64,000 bases of DNA from Candidatus Binatia bacterium (GTDB lineage Bacteria; Desulfobacterota; Binatia; HRBIN30). The position numbers and the translations under genes are program-made. This document shows, one piece after another, positions 1 to 10,969 of this stretch; position 1 is the stretch's first letter; each line of letters opens with the position of its first letter. The notes beneath the pieces are model-generated. The model was given only the letters and a program-made list of their open reading frames with translations, did no database searches and was not told the origin of the DNA. The DNA is taken from assembly GCA_038245295.1 (NCBI GenBank), contig JBBRSP010000023.1, positions 1 to 64,000 of the forward strand. The letters are read 5' to 3'.

Positions 1-130
1 AAGGATGCGGACAGGCGATCTTCGCGCCACGTTCACCGCGCACAGATATTTCGGGCTCGGGCTTTCCAATGGGCGGTTCAGGGAACGCGTTCACCAGAGC
101 CAGGGAAAACGGGATTCTTTCACAAGCTTT

Positions 131-148
131 ACGTCCCCTTTGCGGCAC
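131..148 (+). repeat. REP-like junction motif copy (ACGTCCCCTTTGCGGCAC)
   Basis: Same CGTCCC-N3-TGCG core at 585-600, 675-692 and three times in 4942-4990. Confidence 0.75.
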
Positions 149-152
149 TTTT

Positions 153-574
153 GGTGGGCGGCACGGTGGCAGTCGCGGTTCGGGTCGGCGTGACGGTTGC
201 TTCGCCTTCCGCCAAGGTTCGCGTGAAGGTCGGCGTCGCCGTGAAGACCTGTGTCGCCGTCTCCGTCGGGGAATTCCACGTTCCGGTCGGTGTCGGCGTT
301 GCCACCGCGATCGTCGGTGTCGATGTCGCATCGCCGCAGCCGGGCCCACTGCCGCCGTGGGCACGCGTATCCCACAAGCCCAAGCTGCCGCCCCACTGGC
401 GTGCGTTCCAGCACACCTTGCCGCGGATCGACGCGCTAGCGCGCGCGCCATCAACGACCTCGGATTCTCCCCAGGCGATATTTTCGACCAAACTAAGCGT
501 CACATCTGCTTCCAATTCGGGCATCTCCATTGCGCTCGTACACCGCATCCCTTCGATCGATTGCGAATTGCGAG
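153..574 (+). repeat. ~420-bp direct repeat, copy 1 (copy 2 at 4512-4933)
   Basis: Collinear near-identity at constant offset 4359, read by eye. Confidence 0.95.
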
Positions 575-692
575 AATCGCAACCGCGTCCCGTATGCGGC
601 TCTTCAAAATCCATACTTCCTTCTCGCGTCAGCGCCTTCTTGGTTCCGTCCTACGAATTGCGCGAATCGCCTCTACGTCCCGTTTGCGGCAC
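562..692 (+). repeat. Two ~40-bp imperfect direct repeats (CGAATTGCGnGAATCGC...CGTCCCGTnTGCGGC) at 562-600 and 652-692
   Basis: Direct reading of the sequence. Confidence 0.85.
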
Positions 693-2400
693 CTCTGTCG
701 ATGACGGCGGCCGAAGTAACCTTGCCGGTCTTGCGGGCCACCAGCTCAAGCTCGATAGTCCGCGCATCCATCGGCGGGATTGTATCGATGGCTACTGTCT
801 TGGCATCACTCGCCCCGACGTGTGTTCCGTCGGCCAGCTTGGCGCCGACCAGGGTGGCGCCGCTCACCTGCAACGGGTCCAGGCTCAGAGTGACCAGGTT
901 GGCGGGCGTGGTGGTGCTGCTGTTCTGCACCGTGACGCGCAGCGAGTAGGTCTCGCCGGCTTGCACGACGTCGGGCTGGTTGAAGGTCAAACTCAAGCTC
1001 GGGTGGCGCACCAGCACATTGCCGCGCGCCGTGCCGTGCAGAACCACCGGCGGCTGGCCGTTGCCGAGATCGAGCAGCGCTTCGATCTGGACGACGATCG
1101 AATACGAGCCGAGCTTGCGGCCCTGGACCAGGAACTCGGCCCGGCCCTGTTCGGACGGCGCCAGCTCACTTGCCGGGTGATCCGTGCTCGCCGGCGGCGT
1201 GCTGCGCTGCACATTGGCGCACAGCGCTGGGTCCTCAGCCGTGAGCGCCAGAGGATTGTCGGACGCAAGATCACACAACCCTGAGCCAATCCGGCCGCCA
1301 GCCGTGGCGGCCGGCCACAAGGGATCATCACCGCTGGGGTTGGCAAATTCGCGCACACCGTTGGCACCCAGGGGCAGCTCCAGTTTGGCCGACGCCTTCG
1401 TGATGGTGAGCTTGCCACTCGGAGGTGTGACGTTCGAGAGCAGCAACATCACTTGGAAATACTGATTGAGATAGGCGACGTTGCCAGGGATGACGATGAC
1501 GCCGGGGATCGGCGGGATCTTCCCCACCTCCCCATCGTTGGGCCTCGACAGGATGAACGGCGCAACGTCGAACTCAGCCTTCCCAAGGCCCGGCCCGGCG
1601 CCGAAGGAGCCGAGACCGCTGTTGCTGCCGGGTTCGCTGATCGAGTCGTCTTGTTTGAAGGCGACATCGAGGGAAATCGGCACGGGGGTGGAGTTCGTGG
1701 CGATCGCGAAGCGGAACTCGTAGGCGGTGAAGCTATCACCGTCGAGCAGGATGCCGTGATCGCGGATCTCGTCCATCGACAAGGGGCGCGTATAGAGGTC
1801 GGAGACCGTTATCTGTTCGGGTACATGAATGCTGATCGAGGCTGGATCCGCTTGGCCGAGTGTCGCGCCGTCGGCGTCGATGAGACGGATGTCGTCGACG
1901 ACGTAGTTGCCGGTCCACCGCAGCGGCGGGCTCGGTACGGTGCCCGAGTCGTTGCAGCCGCGGCTCAGGTCAGCGCAACCGTCGCGGCTGGTATCGCTGC
2001 CAAGCTCCAGGGGAGAGCCGACCCGAGCGGCGATCTCCTCGCCGTCGGTCGCCAGGCCCGGCCCGCGCACAACGGCGCGCACGCGGTATTGCGGGAACTC
2101 GGCCGAGACGTCGGCGTCGGCACGCATCAGGCGCGTCGGCAGCTGGTAGGCCGTGTTGCGCGGCACCTCGGGGACGGGGACACCGGGTGGCAGGACAACC
2201 TCGAGGTGCAGGCCGAGGATACGGATGTCGGCGTTGCCGAGGGGTTGTTGGCCTTGGGTGGTAGTGGGGAGGAGCAGGGTTAGCGCACAGACCAGACCAC
2301 ACACCGTAGTTGGTAGTCTACAGCGCGGGGCAGACGATAGGAGAGTACGATCTCCTTTCACCGATCGACAGGCGTCTATTCGTCCACCATCCGTGCGCAT
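673..2400 (-). pseudogene. N-terminal fragment of a giant secreted beta-sandwich-rich protein (probable Rhs/teneurin-like precursor), truncated at the junction motif
   Basis: Signal-peptide-like VCGLVCALTLLLPTTTQG, Ig-like beta-rich sequence; the ORF ends in AANGT*, which is encoded by the repeat motif. Start codon uncertain. Confidence 0.6.
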
Positions 2401-2590
2401 CACTCCCCCAAAATCAACTGGCCTGCGGCTTAGCCGGATTGTGGACGAAGGCACTGCGGCCCAGCCATGAGCCGCTCGGTCTCTCGCCGCCGCAGTTTCT
2501 CCAAAGGTGTAATAGTTCAAACTCCAACACCGATGCCATTGTGCCCGTTGCCGCAGCCATGCCCTTGCATCGACCGAGAATCACAAGACT

Positions 2591-2610
2591 CGCAACCACG
2601 CCCCGTTGCG
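2591..2610 (+). repeat. Degenerate REP-like hairpin CGCAAC-CACGCCCC-GTTGCG
   Basis: Perfect 6-bp stem; resembles the motifs at 578-598 and 4934-4956. Confidence 0.55.
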
Positions 2611-2772
2611 AGCCCGAATTCGCACCCCACCGTATATCCGCGCCTTCGCGCGGCACACAACCAAGCCCCCCCTGCAGCCCCCGTTCGCATGCAATCTAGG
2701 TTCGGTGCTAGCTACCAGCTTCGATGACGTTCCCGCGTTGATGTCGTGCTCAAATCTATTCATTTTGGATTA

Positions 2773-3306
2773 TCACTCATGGCACGCCGACTTAGACTTG
2801 ATCATCTTGACTATGCTATCCCGCTGACTGCGAATTTGATCCGGCGATGCGCAAACATCATCCGGTTTAACATCTGGTGGACGAGAGAGAGTCTCGCCGA
2901 ATCTTTGGGCACATCGCGCGGCAAGCGCTTTGACGTTCAGGCGCAATAAACGGTTCAATAAAACCGGTCCCCGCGCGAGCAATTGGCACGTCGCTTCTTC
3001 AGACAGGTGACCGTCGAGGCGAAATCCCAAGATTTCAACTAAACCGGAGGTCGCTGCATCGCTCCGACCGATGCCAATGATCCCAACTGCTAGATCTAGC
3101 TGCGCGGTTCGATCAATCGCGTCGACACATTTCTCTCGCTGCGCTCTTATTAATATACTCGAGTCGCGAACCATTTCTTCCATGATCACGCGTTTCGCGA
3201 GGTTGACGTATTCCGCCTCGCTAGCATTTGCCGCCTTACCCTCAGCCGACGCGATAAACGCCCAACACATATAACAACCAATCAACAAATGATATAATAC
3301 CCTCAC
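2773..3306 (-). CDS. Putative periplasmic immunity protein for the Tlde1-like toxin
   Basis: Overlaps the toxin stop codon by 4 nt; N-terminal hydrophobic signal ending in ASA; lower GC; paired Cys residues. Confidence 0.7.
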   Translation of the reverse strand: MRVLYHLLIGCYMCWAFIASAEGKAANASEAEYVNLAKRVIMEEMVRDSSILIRAQREKCVDAIDRTAQLDLAVGIIGIGRSDAATSGLVEILGFRLDGHLSEEATCQLLARGPVLLNRLLRLNVKALAARCAQRFGETLSRPPDVKPDDVCASPDQIRSQRDSIVKMIKSKSACHE

Positions 3307-4862
3307 GGTGTCACCCCCAGTGTGCTGCCGGGCTCCATATCTATCAGATTATTGAGGCTTCGGATGTCAGGTACTGTTCCGGCGATGCAGCCTTTTGAAC
3401 AAGGTGGCGTACTGTTAGTAAATGGGTTCAGGCAGCTGTGAGAGCGGAGGCCTTTTCGCCGGGTATTAGTTTCCGGATATGGCTCAAGCACTCGACCGTT
3501 CTTCTTCGCAGTCCAACCTGGCACCCAGTGCCATTTACCCAATGGAATTGGGCCATGGTCTTCGATCGATGTGCAGGCCGGATTATTTTTACACTGCCTA
3601 CCGCCAAGATTATTTCCAGAAACAACCGGGATATCGACGGCGGGGGCCGTAGTAAACATCTGATCGATGGGGGTTTGGCTCACCGTATCACTTGTGCATA
3701 TCAATCTCCCGCCTTGCAAACCCAACGCGCAGGAACCCAACCCTGTTTGATCTGTGCTGTTGAGTGGATCGGCCCCGGCATACAAGAACAAGTTGCCCTG
3801 CGAACCTTGAAATCCAATGGGATCACTACTGGTCCATTTCCCCAACTCCGAATCGTAGTCACGTGCCCCGAAACGCACGAGCCCAGTGTCGGAATCATAC
3901 AGACCACCAGCGTACCCGAACGGCTGAAAGCCAGGGTTCGTGTCGAGCACGACGTTACCCCACTCGTCGTAGTCCATGCGCTGCTCGATGACGCCGGTGC
4001 TGGTATCGATAACGAGCCGCACACTCCCAAGATGATCTGAAATGATGCGATAGCGCGCATTGACGCGCAGGATGTAGTCGGGGACGTTGCCTTTGCTGCC
4101 GTGGACGATGACGCCCGTGACTGCGCTGCTGGCATCCAGCTCGGCCACCGGCAGCAAGCCACCGGCGTAGAGGAATCGCTGCACCGGCTGGCCGTTCTTG
4201 TTCTTGCCGACACGATGATTGGCGGCGTCGATCAGATATGTGATCTGGGTTCCATCGGGCAGGGTGGCGCCGCGCAAGTTGCCGTAGAGGTCATAGCTGT
4301 AGGCGGTTACGCGATTGTCGACTGACGGGTCGCTGGACACCTCGGTCTTCGTCTCTACGGCGCCGTTCACGTAGGTGTATTCGTAGTGGCGCGTGACGCC
4401 GAACGGGTCGACAACGTCCGCCGAGGCGAGTTGGTTGCTTGCGCTGACCACGATGTTCTTACTGACGCCGGAGCCGGCTGAACCGCAGCCGCTGCTGACG
4501 ACTGGGGTGTTCGTGGGTGGCACGGTGGCGGTGTCGGTTGGGGTCGGCGTGAAGGTTGCCTCGCCTTCCGCCAAGGTTCGCGTGAAAGTCGGCGTCGCCG
4601 TGAAGACCTGTGTCGCCGTCTCCGTCGGGGAATTCCACGTTCCGGTCGGTGTCGGCGTTGCCACCGCGATCGTCGGTGTCGATGTCGCATCGCCGCAGCC
4701 GGGCGCACTGCCGCCGTGGGCACGCGTATCCCACAAGCCCAAGCTGCCGCCCCACTGGCGTGCGTTCCAGCACACCTTGCCGCGGATCGACGCGCTAGAG
4801 CGCGCGCCATCAACGACCTCGGATTCTCCCCAGGCAATATTTTCGACCAAACTAAGCGTCAC
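3303..4862 (-). CDS. Orphan Rhs core cassette with C-terminal L,D-transpeptidase-like (Tlde1/DUF2778-like) toxin domain
   Basis: Rhs core (SDHLGSVR, QPFGYAGGLYD, RFGARDYD, DPLNSTDQTGL); C-terminus carries GPIPLG and RSH...SKGCI motifs. No credible native start. Confidence 0.85.
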   Translation of the reverse strand: MTLSLVENIAWGESEVVDGARSSASIRGKVCWNARQWGGSLGLWDTRAHGGSAPGCGDATSTPTIAVATPTPTGTWNSPTETATQVFTATPTFTRTLAEGEATFTPTPTDTATVPPTNTPVVSSGCGSAGSGVSKNIVVSASNQLASADVVDPFGVTRHYEYTYVNGAVETKTEVSSDPSVDNRVTAYSYDLYGNLRGATLPDGTQITYLIDAANHRVGKNKNGQPVQRFLYAGGLLPVAELDASSAVTGVIVHGSKGNVPDYILRVNARYRIISDHLGSVRLVIDTSTGVIEQRMDYDEWGNVVLDTNPGFQPFGYAGGLYDSDTGLVRFGARDYDSELGKWTSSDPIGFQGSQGNLFLYAGADPLNSTDQTGLGSCALGLQGGRLICTSDTVSQTPIDQMFTTAPAVDIPVVSGNNLGGRQCKNNPACTSIEDHGPIPLGKWHWVPGWTAKKNGRVLEPYPETNTRRKGLRSHSCLNPFTNSTPPCSKGCIAGTVPDIRSLNNLIDMEPGSTLGVTP

Positions 4863-4933
4863 ATCTGCTTCCTATTCGGGCATCTCCATTGCGCTTGTAC
4901 ACCGCATCCCTTCGATCGATTGCGAATTGCGAG
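4512..4933 (+). repeat. ~420-bp direct repeat, copy 2
   Basis: Matches 153-574. Confidence 0.95.
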
Positions 4934-4990
4934 TCGCACCCACGTCCCCCTTGCGAGCCGCGTCCCGGTTGCGCCTCCGTCCCCTTTGCG
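4934..4990 (+). repeat. Three tandem copies of the CGTCCC-N3-TGCG motif
   Basis: ACGTCCCCCTTGCG 4942-4955, GCGTCCCGGTTGCG 4960-4973, CCGTCCCCTTTGCG 4977-4990. Confidence 0.8.
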
Positions 4991-5005
4991 AGGCCCGCAG
5001 CATTT

Positions 5006-5911
5006 CTAGCCTGCCCGCCGGGTGCAAGACACCGTTCTTGCCCTCTCAATGAGACTACGGACAGCAACTGCCTGATCGGCTGAGGAAACTTGAAGTGGCA
5101 AACAAGGACAAGCCGACCAACCGCGGGTCCACACTCGACAGCGCACGCCACTCGTGAGCGATATCGAAACACCGGTACGAGCTACCTCGACAGCGTCTAT
5201 ACTTGTAAGTGGTAGCTTCGCCTCCGAGCCAATTTGAACGAACCCGTCCTTAATCTGCGCGATGTCGAATCGCTCACGCCACAACCACAGGCGAAGCACA
5301 ATCGGAAGCACCGGTAAGAACAGCGGTGCCAAGTTTGTTGGTCCGCTGAAGAGCAGCGCTGGTATGCCAGCGAGAAGAAATACGAACCAGAACGGCGGTA
5401 GAAACGCTGCCCAGCGTCGTGATACTGGAATCGCAATTCGGATGCCCGCCGACTCGAGGTAATCTATCAAACGTTCGGTGCATTTTCGCGATCCCTTAAA
5501 AATGACGGGTCTGTGGAGGCCAACACACTGCAAAACGACAAGCGATCCGGCATCAGCTTCTTGGTCGTCGCACCGGGGGATCAGCCACGCCCTGGAAACG
5601 AGATCGCGAGAAAGAATCGTATCCATATCCAGGGACAGGCCAGCGCCTGTTACGGATCCGACTCCTTTCCCGACATAGTACCATCGAGATTGATACAACT
5701 TTGTACCAAGCCCGACGAGCCCTAGCCCTACCACTCCAAACAGCCCACCGGCGTAAGTTACGAATGTGGCCGGCACCAGGATAACGCCCAAGAGGTACAC
5801 GAAGCAGCCGGCGACAACTCGGTAGTATGAAGGGCGCCACACGTCTAATGCGCGAACTTGGTCGGCCATCGACTCGCTCATTTCCATCGATACGCTTCGA
5901 GGGTCTGCCAT
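5006..5911 (-). CDS. Membrane protein, putative immunity protein for the upstream Rhs toxin
   Basis: Directly follows the Rhs stop; two hydrophobic helix pairs, each followed by a beta-rich soluble segment; lower GC. Start uncertain (5935/5911/5887). Confidence 0.65.
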   Translation of the reverse strand: MADPRSVSMEMSESMADQVRALDVWRPSYYRVVAGCFVYLLGVILVPATFVTYAGGLFGVVGLGLVGLGTKLYQSRWYYVGKGVGSVTGAGLSLDMDTILSRDLVSRAWLIPRCDDQEADAGSLVVLQCVGLHRPVIFKGSRKCTERLIDYLESAGIRIAIPVSRRWAAFLPPFWFVFLLAGIPALLFSGPTNLAPLFLPVLPIVLRLWLWRERFDIAQIKDGFVQIGSEAKLPLTSIDAVEVARTGVSISLTSGVRCRVWTRGWSACPCLPLQVSSADQAVAVRSLIERARTVSCTRRAG

Positions 5912-5916
5912 CGACT

Positions 5917-8900
5917 TTACCTTCCTGCGCCGCAAGCGTGGTCAATGTAGGCGCGGAGCTTGTCTGCCTGCTTTGGCCAGGTAAAGTATGTTGCACCACG
6001 TGGGGCAAAGTAGTCGTTGTACCAACTGGCGTTCGGGGCGTCCCCTGTGTGCCGCAGATACACAGAGCCGTTACGCTCGAATGTTTCAAACTTAATCGTG
6101 GCACCAGCTCCGTCAAAGTGCGTTTGGTCCGTTGTGAACACGAACGACGTCGCATCGAGCTCAGTGACTGTGACTCCATTACCGCTCACGCACCCATCGA
6201 ATGGTCCGCGGGGGCCAAGGAGATCGTATGTACTGCCCAGCTTGAGTGGGCCCTGCGGCGCAAACCTTGGCATGAGGCACTGCCATCCGCTGATGTTGGC
6301 GCTTCGGTCGATAACCCAAAATGGGAAAATGGCGTTCGGGTCCCCCTGTAGGGCAGCCATGGTCGAAAACGTGTTTCGACAGGGGGACACCGGACCAATT
6401 TCCTGTTCCTTCACATAGTGATACAGCCCGCTTGGATCGCTAAAATTCCCAGGATCATTCCCAACGTACGTGTAGACATTCCCCTGCCCACCCCCGAACC
6501 CAATCGGATCCCTCGCCGTCCACCGCCCGATCGCCGGATCGTAGTCGCGCGCCCCGAAGCGCACGAGGCCGGTGTCGGGATCGTACAACCCTCCGGCGTA
6601 GCCGAAGGGCTGGAACCCGGGGTTGGTGTCGAGCAGAACGTTGCCCCACTCGTCGTAGTCCATGCGCTGCTCTACCACGCCGGTATTGGTGTTGATGACC
6701 AGGCGCACACTGCCAAGGTGATCGCTGATTAGCCTGTAGGTCGTACTCCCGCGTTTGATGTAATCCGGGACGTTGCCCTTGCTGCCGTAGACGATAACGC
6801 CGGTGACGCTGTTGCTCGCATCCAGTTCGGCCACCGGCAGCAGGCCGCCGGCGTAGAGGAAGCGTTGCACCGGCTGGCCATCCTTGTCCTTCCCGACACG
6901 GTGATTCGCGGCATCGATGAGGTAGGTGATCACGCTGCTGTCCGGCAGAGTGACGCTACGCAGGTTGCCCCACAGATCGTACGAGTACGAGGTTATGAGA
7001 GTGGTGGAGTGTTGGCTGTTCGGCGACTCGACCTTCGTTGCCAGAGCACCGTTCGTGTAGGTGTATTCGTAGTGGTGCGTGACGCCGAAGGGGTCGATGA
7101 CGTCGGCTTTGGTCAGTTGATTGTCGCCGGTCACGACGATGTTGGTCGTCACGCCTGAGCCGCCGGAGCCGCATGATTCTGCATCGACGGTCGCCGTCGC
7201 CGTAGCACTCGCGGTGCGAGTCGGGGTTTTGGTGATTGTGGCGGTGGCGACGGGTGTTTCGGCGGTCGGTGTCGCTGTCGGTGGTGGATCGGTCGCCGTC
7301 GGTGTTGCGGTGAGCGATGGAGCATCGGTTGGCGTCGCCGTTGGGCCGCCCGGCGTCCATGTGACCGTCGCGGTTTGGGATGGCGTCCGCGACGGCGTGT
7401 ACGATCCGGTCGGCGTGCGGCTCGGCCCAGGATCGACGCCGCAGCCGCTGCTGCCGCCGCGGTTGCCGTGGTCATCGTACGTGTGATGCGCCAGCAGCGT
7501 GCTTCCGCTGTAGATGTTCTTCAATCGATTCGCGCCATCGAACTCGTATGTGCGTGACACTGTGCTCTCGAGGTCGCCGGTTGTCGGATCGATGATCTGC
7601 TCGGTCTTGCCAGTGATGCGACCGCTCGCCGCGTCTCTGGTGTAGGTAACCTGGAATACGGTCTGGCCGTCGACCTTCGCGGTGTATCCCCCTGGCTCGC
7701 CAAAGGCGTTGAGGTTGTCATACGTGTCCGTAACCGCGTAGGTGCCGCTCAGGGTCGTGCCTTCGAGAAAGCTGGCATCATTGCTGCGATCGAGCTGCAT
7801 GGCGCCGACTTGCGTGACCACGCCGTCCGGGTCGACCGTGCGACTGATCGTCGTGCCGCCGACGCTCATCGATGTCGCCTGGAACGTGGCGTTGCGCCCG
7901 ATGCCGACACTGCCGGTCACGGGGCCGGTTGTAGTCACAGCGTTCACCGCCGCTCCGCCGTACCCGTAGTCGATTACCCCATCGGGCGTGGTCACTTTGG
8001 TCAAGTGATCGCGGGTATACTGCAACGTCACATCACCAACGCCCGTTAAGTTGCCATGCGCGTCGAAGGTGAGAGCGCCCCACGGGCTCGTGCCACCGTT
8101 TGGAATGCGATCGAGTGAGTAGCTGACGGAGATTTGACCAGCCGGAACCGTATCGGTGAGCTGGTAATCGACCGGGTTGTACGAGGCGCTCTCGTTGTAG
8201 TCCGCATCCTGAGGCGAGCTGACGTTGTCGATGTTGCCGTCGTTGTCGGGCGTGATACCAAACGATTCGCCCGGTGAGGTCACGCTGGTCGGATCGCCTG
8301 CCGTGTCGCGGCCGATGTTGACGCTGCCGAGCGGTCCGGTGATGCTCGACACCGCCGCGCCGGCATATCCAAAGCCGAGTGAGCGGCCGCCCTGGCTGAT
8401 CGAGCTGACGCGGCCGCCGGTGTATCCGATGGCGATAGCTGGCAGGCCGGGAAGCTGGACGCTCTGTGGGCGGCCGGCAGCGTCGGTGGTGGTTTGGATG
8501 GTGCGCCCGCCCGGTGTGGTGGTGGTGATCTGGTTGCCGTCGATGCTGGTGCTGGCGGTGGAGCCGTTGAGAGTCCCCGAGTCGCTGGCACTGGTGATCG
8601 TGCGTGGATCGTCGGGGTCGCCCCACTCGACGTTGTAGGTCCCGGCCGCGGTGATCTGATCCTCGGTTGCGGTCGAGGAGAAGCTTGCGTTGCGGCCGGC
8701 TTCGTAGCTCGATGTGCCGCTACCCGAGCCGCTGGCGCTGCTGAAGGTTGCGGTCGCGTTCTGGCTCGCATCAACCGAGACGCTGCCCAGCACGCGATCG
8801 TCGATGTTGTCGGGGGTTGAGGCATAGCCGAGGTTGATGCGGTCGCGCGTACCGCCCGGCGAGTAGAGATCAATGATGCTGAGCCCGGCCGTGCCGTCGG

Positions 8901-9318
8901 CCACATACAGCAGGCCGCTATCGGGATCGCCCGCGGCGCCGAGGGGCCTGCCACCGGGGGTGAGGATCTTGCCCATCCCATTCGGGATCTCCTCGGCCGC
9001 AAAGAGCTGGTCGCCTACCGGAGCACGGAACTGGACTGAGATGTTCGGGTCGGTGGTGCCGTGGTAGGTGCCGTCGACTTGCTCAGCGTCCAGGTCGAAG
9101 CTGGAGTTTTGCAACTGCACCGCTTGCAAGCCAATCGTCGACATGTTGGCGATGAAGGCGCGTTCGACACCGAGCTGCGCCACCGAATTCGTGCTGTCGT
9201 ACGGCTCGGCCGCCGGACCACAGGCCAGCAGCTTGACGTGGTCGGCGAAACTATTCTCCGTTGCCTTCAACTCGGAGCCTCGAATGTCCGTCTTTCCCCG
9301 CCAAGTCAACCGCGCCAA
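5917..9318 (-). CDS. Rhs/YD-repeat protein, apparently 5'-truncated, with an uncharacterised C-terminal toxin domain
   Basis: YD-type repeats, Rhs core, DPGNFSDPSGL cleavage motif (about 6424-6460), divergent ~170-aa tail; no signal peptide. Confidence 0.9.
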   Translation of the reverse strand: MARLTWRGKTDIRGSELKATENSFADHVKLLACGPAAEPYDSTNSVAQLGVERAFIANMSTIGLQAVQLQNSSFDLDAEQVDGTYHGTTDPNISVQFRAPVGDQLFAAEEIPNGMGKILTPGGRPLGAAGDPDSGLLYVADGTAGLSIIDLYSPGGTRDRINLGYASTPDNIDDRVLGSVSVDASQNATATFSSASGSGSGTSSYEAGRNASFSSTATEDQITAAGTYNVEWGDPDDPRTITSASDSGTLNGSTASTSIDGNQITTTTPGGRTIQTTTDAAGRPQSVQLPGLPAIAIGYTGGRVSSISQGGRSLGFGYAGAAVSSITGPLGSVNIGRDTAGDPTSVTSPGESFGITPDNDGNIDNVSSPQDADYNESASYNPVDYQLTDTVPAGQISVSYSLDRIPNGGTSPWGALTFDAHGNLTGVGDVTLQYTRDHLTKVTTPDGVIDYGYGGAAVNAVTTTGPVTGSVGIGRNATFQATSMSVGGTTISRTVDPDGVVTQVGAMQLDRSNDASFLEGTTLSGTYAVTDTYDNLNAFGEPGGYTAKVDGQTVFQVTYTRDAASGRITGKTEQIIDPTTGDLESTVSRTYEFDGANRLKNIYSGSTLLAHHTYDDHGNRGGSSGCGVDPGPSRTPTGSYTPSRTPSQTATVTWTPGGPTATPTDAPSLTATPTATDPPPTATPTAETPVATATITKTPTRTASATATATVDAESCGSGGSGVTTNIVVTGDNQLTKADVIDPFGVTHHYEYTYTNGALATKVESPNSQHSTTLITSYSYDLWGNLRSVTLPDSSVITYLIDAANHRVGKDKDGQPVQRFLYAGGLLPVAELDASNSVTGVIVYGSKGNVPDYIKRGSTTYRLISDHLGSVRLVINTNTGVVEQRMDYDEWGNVLLDTNPGFQPFGYAGGLYDPDTGLVRFGARDYDPAIGRWTARDPIGFGGGQGNVYTYVGNDPGNFSDPSGLYHYVKEQEIGPVSPCRNTFSTMAALQGDPNAIFPFWVIDRSANISGWQCLMPRFAPQGPLKLGSTYDLLGPRGPFDGCVSGNGVTVTELDATSFVFTTDQTHFDGAGATIKFETFERNGSVYLRHTGDAPNASWYNDYFAPRGATYFTWPKQADKLRAYIDHACGAGR

Positions 9319-9360
9319 GCCTAGTCAAAAGGGCGACAGGGCTGCTTCGTGATCGGAAGT

Positions 9361-9414
9361 GGCGGGGCGATGGAGGACACCCACCAGGGCGGGGCCATGG
9401 AGGACACCCACCAG
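9361..9414 (+). repeat. 27-bp tandem repeat x2 (GGCGGGGCsATGGAGGACACCCACCAG)
   Basis: 9361-9387 and 9388-9414, one mismatch. Confidence 0.95.
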
Positions 9415-9652
9415 CGTCGTGGTCTTCGTGAGCGATACATCGTTGGGATCTGTTCTGGTGTCTACCTGGGCGGGCACGAGCCAGCATTCGCTAGGAACGC
9501 CCGCCGCGCGATCGACGGCGGGCGCGCGGCGCACGCCTCGCGTTGACTTCAGAAATTCCTGCGGCTACCACGCTTTCTTGTTATTGGACACGGAGATAGG
9601 CCTGGATGGGTGTCATCCGGGCCTTCTTTGTAATTGGCCCTAAGGAGGCTGT

Positions 9653-10969
9653 GTGAAAGTCTGCGTCATCGGCACGGGCTACGTTGGTCTGGTTGCCGGT
9701 ACCTGCTTTGCCGAGAGCGGCAATGATGTCGTTTGCGTCGATGTCGACGAGAACAAGATCAACCGGTTGCGCCAGGGTATCGTGCCGATCTACGAGCCCG
9801 GTCTCGAAGAGCTCATCAAGCGCAACGTCGCCGAAGGGCGGCTCATTTTTACGACGGATCTCGCCGACGGTGTCTGCAAGTCGCTGATCTGTTTTGTCGC
9901 CGTCGGTACGCCACAAAGTGAGGACGGCAGCGCCGACCTGACCGCCGTGTTGAAGGTCGCCGATGCGATCGGCGCCGCCATGAACGACTACAAGGTCGTC
10001 GTCGATAAGAGCACCGTACCGGTCGGAACCGCCGAGAAGGTTCGCAAGGCGATCGCGGCGCGCACCAATCATGCTTTTGATGTCGTCTCGAATCCCGAGT
10101 TCTTGAAAGAGGGCGCGGCGATCGACGATTTCATGAAGCCGGATCGTGTGGTCATCGGTAGCGACAGCGCCAAGGCGACTGAGATCATGAAGGAGCTCTA
10201 CGGGCCCTTCGTGAGGACCGAGCAGCCCATCGTCGTCATGAGCGCGGCCAGCGCCGAGATGACCAAGTACTGCGGCAACGCCATGCTGGCGGCGCGTATC
10301 TCGCTCATGAACGAGTTTGCCAACCTGTGTGAGCGCGTCGGCGCCGACATCGACGACGTGCGTCGCGGCATCGGCTTCGACAAACGCATCGGCCAACACT
10401 TCCTCTTCCCCGGTGTCGGCTACGGCGGCTCCTGTTTTCCAAAGGATGTCAAAGCCGTCATCCGTACGGCCAAGGAGCACGATCTCGATTTTCGCATGCT
10501 CGGTGCGGCTGAGGCGGTCAACGAACGACAGAAGCGTACGCTGTTCGAAAAGGTTGCTTCGCACTTCGACAATAAGCTCAAGGGTAAGAAGTTCGCTGTC
10601 TGGGGCCTGGCGTTCAAGCCGCGCACCGACGACATGCGCGAAGCTCCGGCGATCACCATCATCGATGCGCTGCTCGATGCCGGTGCCAGTGTGCATGCCC
10701 ATGACCCGGAAGCCCTCGAAGAAGGGCGCAAGGTGTGGGGCGATCGCATCCAGTATCATCGCGTCAACTACGAAGCGCTCGATGGCGCCGACGCGTTGTT
10801 GATCGTCACCGAATGGAACGAATTCCGCCGACCGGATTTCGAGCGCATCAAGAAGGCGATGAAGCATCCGGTCATTTTTGACGGACGCAACATCTACGAT
10901 CCGCAGGATATGCGGCAACGCGGTTTCGTCTACTACTCCGTCGGCCGCCGACCGGTCCGTCCCGAGTAG
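9653..10969 (+). CDS. ugd: UDP-glucose 6-dehydrogenase
   Basis: [43 protein letters not shown] motifs. Confidence 0.95.

Follow-up and report, generated by a model that had tools for sequence, protein, structure and literature searches.

We analysed a stretch of 64,000 nucleotides (the window) that opens contig C23 in the 6.63-Mb genome of a Candidatus Binatia bacterium (G000), and whose first part carries truncated Rhs toxin genes among copies of a short motif. We found that this motif forms the outermost part of a terminal inverted repeat (TIR) that belongs to a TIRtron, a mobile element with a Y1-type HUH transposase (TIRYT). The repeat carries an outer flank of ~12-13 nt, and genes are cut at fixed offsets where this flank ends. 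As genes break at 12-13 bases from the TIR, the enzyme likely cuts there. In this sense, the sequence makes it quite probable that a TIRYT acting in trans nicks 12-13 bases outside the TIR and joins the element end to unrelated DNA. A previous sequence-only reading had taken the motif copies for target or scar sites of a process that reassembles toxin cassettes; they turned out to be the element's own ends, and the data do not establish a dedicated toxin-reassembly system.

The motif and the TIRtron to which it belongs

Exact copies of CGTCCCNNNTGCG are found at 132, 586, 676, 4943, 4961 and 4978, all on the + strand, and a degenerate copy at 2577-2612, as the sequence-only reading had reported. 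Only 0.53 exact copies are expected in the window, and six were reached in 0 of 100 shuffles. Although real in the window, the motif is only the tip of the true unit, the TIR, an element of ~28 bp that reads GGGACG-Y-GGTTGCGATTCTCGCGATTC on the minus strand and is present in ~50 copies in the genome, often as inverted dimers of ~60 bp, one of which folds at z -9.2. A position weight matrix of the TIR (PWM, site threshold score >=16) detected 46 sites genome-wide vs 0 in the shuffled genome, and the curated set comprises 55 sites. The N3-TGCG flank that had been included in the motif occurs in 8/55 curated sites, six of those eight within the window, which indicates that it is a local flank variant. 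The strict 13-mer was rejected as a genome-wide signal, its 27 matches being at background (15-23 for other spacer lengths). The base composition of the outer flank is biased up to position 13 and flat further out. An exact search in 401 genomes (G000 and 400 others of its class) gave 12 matches in G000 and at most two per genome elsewhere, the inner TIR sequence being private to G000 among them; one metagenome match lies inside a gene and was judged to be chance.

The genome holds five matches to Y1_Tnp plus further fragments, and many TIRYT copies are broken. The sequence-only reading had suggested looking for a transposase flanked by the same sequence, and the TIR unit was indeed found ~110 nt upstream of TIRYT genes on contigs C90 and C34. 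A sister element (C2:248479-249699) has its Y1 HUH gene, for a TIRYT of 342 aa, between a perfect ~27-bp inverted pair with the GGGACG tip of the window unit. The C2 and C34 proteins carry NHFH, FQ and YIHLNP motifs and a DnaA-like C-terminal helix-turn-helix (HTH), which agree with the signatures of subclass 2.1 (NH[YF]H, FQ/W[EQ], Y[IV]HLNP, C-terminal HTH); Y1_Tnp scores above its cut-off and Bac_DnaA_C (E 1.6e-5) below its own. Also, 10 of 19 TIRYT loci in other genomes of the family have GGGACG within ~160 nt upstream, followed by inner repeats of their own. For the TIR subfamily of the window, left ends (C90, C34) and the right end are found on separate contigs. Taken together, the window sites likely belong to a HUH/Y1 TIRYT of subclass 2.1 encoded elsewhere in the genome and acting in trans. 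The sequence-only reading had already proposed a HUH transposase in trans, and a Y1 HUH enzyme is supported, but it is of the TIR-associated subclass and not a RAYT (transposase associated with repetitive extragenic palindromes, REPs) that recognises REP hairpins. It was also right that the window has no recombinase, as contig C23 has no intact Y1 or tyrosine recombinase gene; what the window does hold, at 604-694, is the right end of a TIRtron.

Breakpoints at a fixed distance from the repeat

Five independent junctions lie 12-13 nt outside a TIR and join sequence-unrelated partners. The offset is 13 nt at 150/151, where shared sequence stops and the homology of a duplicate starts, 12 nt at 603/604 and 13 nt at 694/695. 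Outside the window, it is 13 nt between the ends on C54 and C60, and 12 nt in an adenylate cyclase gene on C2, whose match to its paralogue stops at residue 354. The view that the sites mark real breakpoints is thus borne out. Because the adenylate cyclase gene was cut in the same way and few sites are close to Rhs genes (6/55 within 3 kb of an Rhs core), cutting is not Rhs-specific.

Read-side support comes from assembled contigs of two samples of one study, X1 (possibly the source sample) and X2, which confirm two of the five junctions. In X1, 652-4617 and 4904-10500 are each covered by a single contig, while 109-258 and 545-637 are bridged by short contigs; in X2, a contig bridges 106-504. 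The depth of the X1 contig that covers 229-574 is double the background, as fits the duplicate; a joint of 7682 to 5919 (depth 2) does not coincide with a TIR. Over 608-677 the X1 depth is 4x: one further copy extends leftwards past 604 into the 3' part of a TIRYT, the shared sequence of another ends precisely at 694, and a third has an insertion sequence (IS) end at 677. Positions 604-651 match the DNA right behind a TIRYT C-terminal fragment on C34 which, together with these contigs, identifies 604-694 as a truncated TIRtron right end.

The gene cut at 694/695 is the N-terminus (ORF 673-2400; ORF, open reading frame) of a family of giant proteins of 3000-4100 aa. Its relatives match up to residue 562-574 of 575 and then run on for thousands of residues, and G000 yielded no intact copy of the gene. 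Contig C72 holds an internal 483-codon piece of the family (217-1893 of the locus) between two TIR outer ends, and the pieces on C3, C12 and C34, the other outlying ones traced in G000, likewise lie near TIR or TIRYT remnants. Rhs tail, small gene and giant-gene start follow one another in this order in a relative as well; the locus therefore looks trimmed rather than permuted, and the term "scrambled", used for it before, fits it less well. Apart from this, the family looks secreted, its N-terminal 575 aa have no Pfam or NCBIfam match, and the C72 piece has a TIRYT tail beside it, as in an inside-out composite. In G027, a genome from the window's order, tandem giant-protein genes each follow a short N-terminal fragment (residues ~33-178 or ~264), and no TIRtron was seen in this array (G027:C3:392-435 kb).

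The duplication next to the motif measures 441 bp, not 420 as stated before (151-591 vs 4510-4948, 95.9% identity). Both right ends stop at CGTCCC as had been noticed, but the left end of the second copy (4510) has no motif. The block probably includes an older TIRtron right end with a decayed transposase tail. In this sense, 498-591 matches C34:52624-52717, and a hidden Markov model of the TIRYT C-terminus gave weak scores of 7.0 and 4.1 bits (top 0.2% and 1.4% of 3000 null windows), in a reading frame picked by eye beforehand. At DNA level, a TIRYT 3' end in 4690-4915 stayed within the shuffle range for 7/7 candidate ends tried. The first part of ORF 129-614 is repeat-element DNA read backwards; for residues 1-110 of its twin, ORF 3303-4862, no homologues were found, which is weak evidence. 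As to the observation that two unrelated ORFs end within the motif, their ends do read AAKGT* (129-614) and AANGT* (673-2400, also given as 673-2520), but the TAA of the former is supplied by the junction with an IS1182 end inserted in the TIR site, while the TAG of the latter belongs to the TIR variant GGGACGTAG.

An IS1182-family passenger in the repeat

Sites where an IS1182-type element meets a TIR lie at 1-137 of the window and on C10, C16, C18, C20, C22, C44, C45, C50, C61, C62 and C72. The C18 copy, which shares the IS end sequence of the window, encodes a DDE transposase that matches NF033551 at 337 bits (cut-off 270), between short inverted ends. Of 17 IS1182 end words in the genome, 14 directly adjoin one and the same TIR base. 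When left junctions of some copies are set against right junctions of others, a GTR duplication of 3 bp is implied. Judging from these junctions, IS1182 is a secondary passenger that inserts into the TIR, a further case of a mobile element parasitising another. The IS1182 family targets palindromes. In G401, a Kiritimatiellae genome unrelated to that of the window, an IS1182-like transposase gene also lies against TIR inner ends.

Rhs arrays of other genomes

A search with the Rhs protein of the window gave 11 Rhs loci in eight genomes, with TIRs only at two adjacent loci of G401. These form an orphan array, built of mini-element and orphan units, which is punctuated by GGGGTC-type TIRs, contains a TIRYT gene and is crowded by IS elements as well. 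We found 25 of the 39 TIR matches of G401 within 3 kb of one of its 28 Rhs cores, with 1.3 expected (3.3% of the sequence); as site counts within one array are not independent, clusters were also counted, and 7/13 lie within 3 kb of a core. At the same distance, DDE transposases are near a core in 4/18 cases, and three of five Y1 genes are within 1.6 kb of one. In the 46-kb array, 5/6 aligned Rhs copies start just outside a TIR, at a distance of 7-9 bases (12 in one lower-identity alignment), and these starts fall on four different positions of the core; the sixth copy follows a TIR-like sequence of another family. Five lower-identity alignments at other G401 loci have starts that are not at TIRs.

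In G027, two TIR-adjacent, 5'-truncated Rhs pieces have homology beginning at base 16 and 21. Among 19 further multi-core Rhs stretches in 12 genomes, TIRtron ends are present in only two (G027, G029), which argues for one route among several; in G029 a TIRtron remnant lies beside the Rhs locus, with no breakpoint shown there. The wider idea about Rhs genes is strengthened by G401, where orphan Rhs fragments begin right outside TIRs; in G000, most sites are away from Rhs genes.

Two other observations were made in such arrays. At G401:C2 5767-7300, an Rhs core-and-tip fragment shares one open frame of 533 aa with a full TIRYT, the frame running across a TIR between them, which may be chance. 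In genome G412 (C8: 13414, 17023 and 18955), a GTAG-tagged REP-like hairpin occurs three times in an Rhs array, once at 138 nt from a truncated core.

Mechanism and rival explanations

A possible course of events is as follows. The C-terminal HTH would bind the inner GCGATTC direct repeats, and the TIRYT would nick 12-13 nt outside GGGACG and ligate that end to unrelated DNA. Such one-ended strand transfer may result either in deletion of adjacent DNA or in copying of the end together with attached DNA. Repeated events could leave what is seen in the window: co-oriented ends without the rest of the element, a trimmed giant gene, the 441-bp duplicate and stutters of 17-18 nt. In Rhs arrays, they would leave orphan toxin-immunity modules whose cores are 5'-truncated at positions unrelated in sequence; such modules could later be used by ordinary homologous recombination.

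Several results weigh against this explanation, besides the non-independence of the G401 site counts. Gene ends are not enriched at the sites genome-wide (8/45 vs 16/143, p 0.30, in a crude test). The assembled sequence holds no intact copy of the exact TIR subfamily of the window, and the X1 and X2 contigs list no alternative or circular junction at TIR sites. The junctions near 4715 and 9257 are not at a TIR, the latter being ~70 nt from a worn one; a TIR overlaps the stop of the C21 Rhs gene with no visible truncation, and the C5 Rhs gene is without a TIR site. Offsets differ among families (7-9, 12-13 and 16-21), and so does geometry, the outer flank abutting 3'-cut genes in the window and 5'-cut cores in G401 and G027. 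In addition, the IS (DDE) control of G401 rises to 8/18 at 10 kb.

Among the alternatives, it seems unlikely that TIRYT and mini-TIRtrons constitute a domesticated, toxin-directed cassette system that excises, moves and re-fuses toxin-immunity modules in Rhs arrays. It would fit with the ~20-fold TIR enrichment at the Rhs cores of G401, above that of DDE transposases, with the mini-element and orphan units of that array, and with the traced giant-family pieces near TIR or TIRYT remnants. However, non-toxin and IS genes are cut alike, 17/19 of the other multi-core stretches lack TIRtron ends, many TIRYT copies are broken, no rebuilt functional toxin gene was seen, and G000 lacks an intact giant gene among the pieces found; the reassembly of toxin cassettes once proposed for this locus is a reading of this kind. 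Passive accumulation supposes that TIRtrons gathered in a dispensable island and that the deletions arose by host recombination or slippage between short repeats, no enzyme defining the cut. IS elements do crowd the arrays, some junctions are far from TIRs and the stutters could be slippage, but recombination between TIR copies would break within the repeat and not at a fixed distance outside it, and the five junctions at 12-13 nt have sequence-unrelated partners, so we regard this as quite improbable.

The hairpins raise another possibility, which now has very little to recommend it: a REP-hairpin/RAYT system, or an integron-like array with a tyrosine recombinase, that reads CGCA..TGCG hairpins. 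The window copies are co-oriented, and two window stretches do fold with this stem (z -2.4 and -2.6), but the stem flank is limited to the 8/55 sites mentioned above, and the stem is absent at 650-700 and from the C90 copy beside the transposase, which does not fold above shuffles (z +0.72) as a tagged single-strand hairpin REP flanking its gene would. The hairpin, which the sequence-only reading had considered a frequent feature of the sites, was rejected as a recognised structure because it is not conserved across them. Moreover, the RAYT model NF047646 scores 62 bits, below its cut-off of 80, the 11 matches to PF00589 in the genome include none on C23 (a contig that begins at the window start, so that only its one side of the array is covered), and the placement of TIRs at TIRYT genes largely refutes both systems. 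Finally, an assembly artefact around repeats could be suspected, as the window starts at the contig end, inside an IS element, and the run that gives most of the support is possibly the source sample. We give almost no credence to it: X1 contigs span or bridge the junctions, depth doubles over the duplicate and the X2 contig bridges 106-504.

Cutting by a TIRYT at a fixed distance is hence the explanation we prefer. Whether TIRYTs act again and again as an engine, perhaps a domesticated one, of polymorphic-toxin arrays, producing orphan modules without homology from the window's order to Kiritimatiellae, is a more tentative idea, which we consider possible but rather doubtful. If true, element ends with a short flank would be nicked at a fixed distance, spliced into arbitrary points of Rhs cores and thereby move modules. 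TIRYTs are among the commonest HUH transposase groups, and the junctions predict a cut position for them. Also, orphan Rhs 5' ends, which the tip-exchange model leaves unexplained, coincide with TIR ends in at least two genomes.

Map of the window

The features mapped are collected in Table 1. The orphan at 3303-4715 and its Imm57 gene have the make-up of an Rhs orphan module (truncated core, variable tip, downstream immunity gene), with a Tlde1_dom match of the tip (E 4e-4) below the cut-off. Stutters like those at 4961 and 4978 also flank TIRYT genes in relatives. The product of 5006-5935 has no Pfam or NCBIfam family match. A worn GGGGACAG-type TIR lies at 9327-9348, within the piece common to C34, and Rfam gave 0 matches in 1-10000.

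Table 1. Features at the beginning of the window
Positions	Strand	Feature	Remarks
1..129	.	IS1182-family element end, inserted into a TIR	matches IS ends on C18, C50, C10, C61, C72
130..150	-	outer stub of interrupted TIR, CGTCCC 132-137, and 13-nt outer flank	
151..356 (right boundary approximate)	-	copied Thr/Pro linker piece of Rhs orphan	96% identical to 4510-4715
357..563	+	inner part of older TIRtron end, possibly decayed TIRYT 3' end	
564..603	-	TIR 564-591 and 12-nt outer flank	PWM 44.8; next piece begins at 604
604..694	+	truncated TIRtron right end	subterminal 604-653, TIR 654-681, 13-nt outer flank 682-694
695..2400	-	N-terminal ~570 codons of giant protein, cut at TIR flank	
2577..2617	-	degenerate TIR and flank, intergenic	PWM 30.8; same TIR-to-gene-start junction on C34
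2773..3306	-	Imm57 immunity gene	PF15596, E 1.5e-9
3303..4715 (5' boundary approximate)	-	5'-truncated Rhs orphan: linker, core, Tlde1-like tip	TIGR03696, E 3.4e-18
4716..4995	-	second copy of older TIRtron end, TIR 4922-4948	two 17-18-nt end stutters at 4961, 4978
5006..5935	-	gene following second Rhs tip; its position makes an immunity gene probable	
5917..9256	-	second, longer 5'-truncated Rhs fragment	TIGR03696, E 1.1e-20
9257..9364	.	piece common to C34 (start region of another gene)	87% identical to C34:52149-52256

Some further repeats were noticed. Both Rhs fragments have a Cys-flanked Thr/Pro linker among YD repeats right before the core (7180-7460 and 4490-4715). A direct repeat of 19 bp (ATGGAGGACACCCACCAG type) lies at 9361-9422 and is also present on C20 and C10; it adds a further repeat family to the border of the island. 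On C21 (8869-9500), the 2277-aa Rhs gene is followed by two direct TIR copies 457 bp apart, which enclose short tandem CACGAAGACACGAAG-type repeats and no clear immunity gene.

Comparison with known systems

The element type has already been named, while the cut position and the link to Rhs arrays are new relative to the literature searched. In that literature, from which subscription journals were mostly left outside, we found no paper linking TIRYTs or TIRs to Rhs, none giving a TIRYT cut position and no experimental study of TIRYTs; one work mentions TIRYT/TIRs and Rhs without linking them in the parts available (10.1101/2024.07.17.603846).

According to the passages available of Quentin et al. 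(PMC6006769), subclass 2.1 equals the TIRYTs of Di Nocera et al. (PMC3733652) and is present in 14.9% of strains, and HUH chemistry consists of single-strand cleavage and ligation through a catalytic tyrosine. The elements described in these passages share with ours the Y1 HUH gene between long TIRs, the protein motifs, the DnaA-like HTH and a dispersed family of TIRs scattered as singles, dimers and clusters. The published TIR start is GGGGWSAS, whereas the window family starts with GGGGACGY; the former is common but not required, other TIRs being unrelated according to Di Nocera et al. (PMC3733652). A separate element on C27 has GGGGACAG. In the passages available, neither paper gives a cut position, a carried outer flank or gene truncation, which are mapped here, and "rhs" occurs 0 times in both main texts, whereas we describe a link to Rhs.

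The IS1182-family element shares with its relatives the NF033551 transposase, short inverted ends and a short target duplication; here, a fixed base within the TIR of another element serves as the insertion point, with the apparent GTR duplication.

Orphan modules with a 5'-truncated core, a tip and an immunity gene downstream of Rhs genes, with transposable elements common nearby, are described in the parts seen of a study on tip exchange by homologous recombination (10.1101/2025.05.08.652813), whose passages do not explain the origin of the orphan 5' ends. It names IS3, IS5, IS30 and IS1595 as disruptors, whereas here TIR ends define the orphan 5' ends in some arrays.

The closest parallel in spirit is TnpA-REP at prochlorosin genes (10.1101/2020.03.09.984088). 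In the passages available, transposases of subclass 2.1 and C-terminal fragments of these enzymes are found clustered with a gene family that diversifies, and a role in diversifying recombination was proposed, the authors noting no strong evidence for causation. The cargo is different there, and in our case the breakpoints are mapped to a fixed base offset from the element end.

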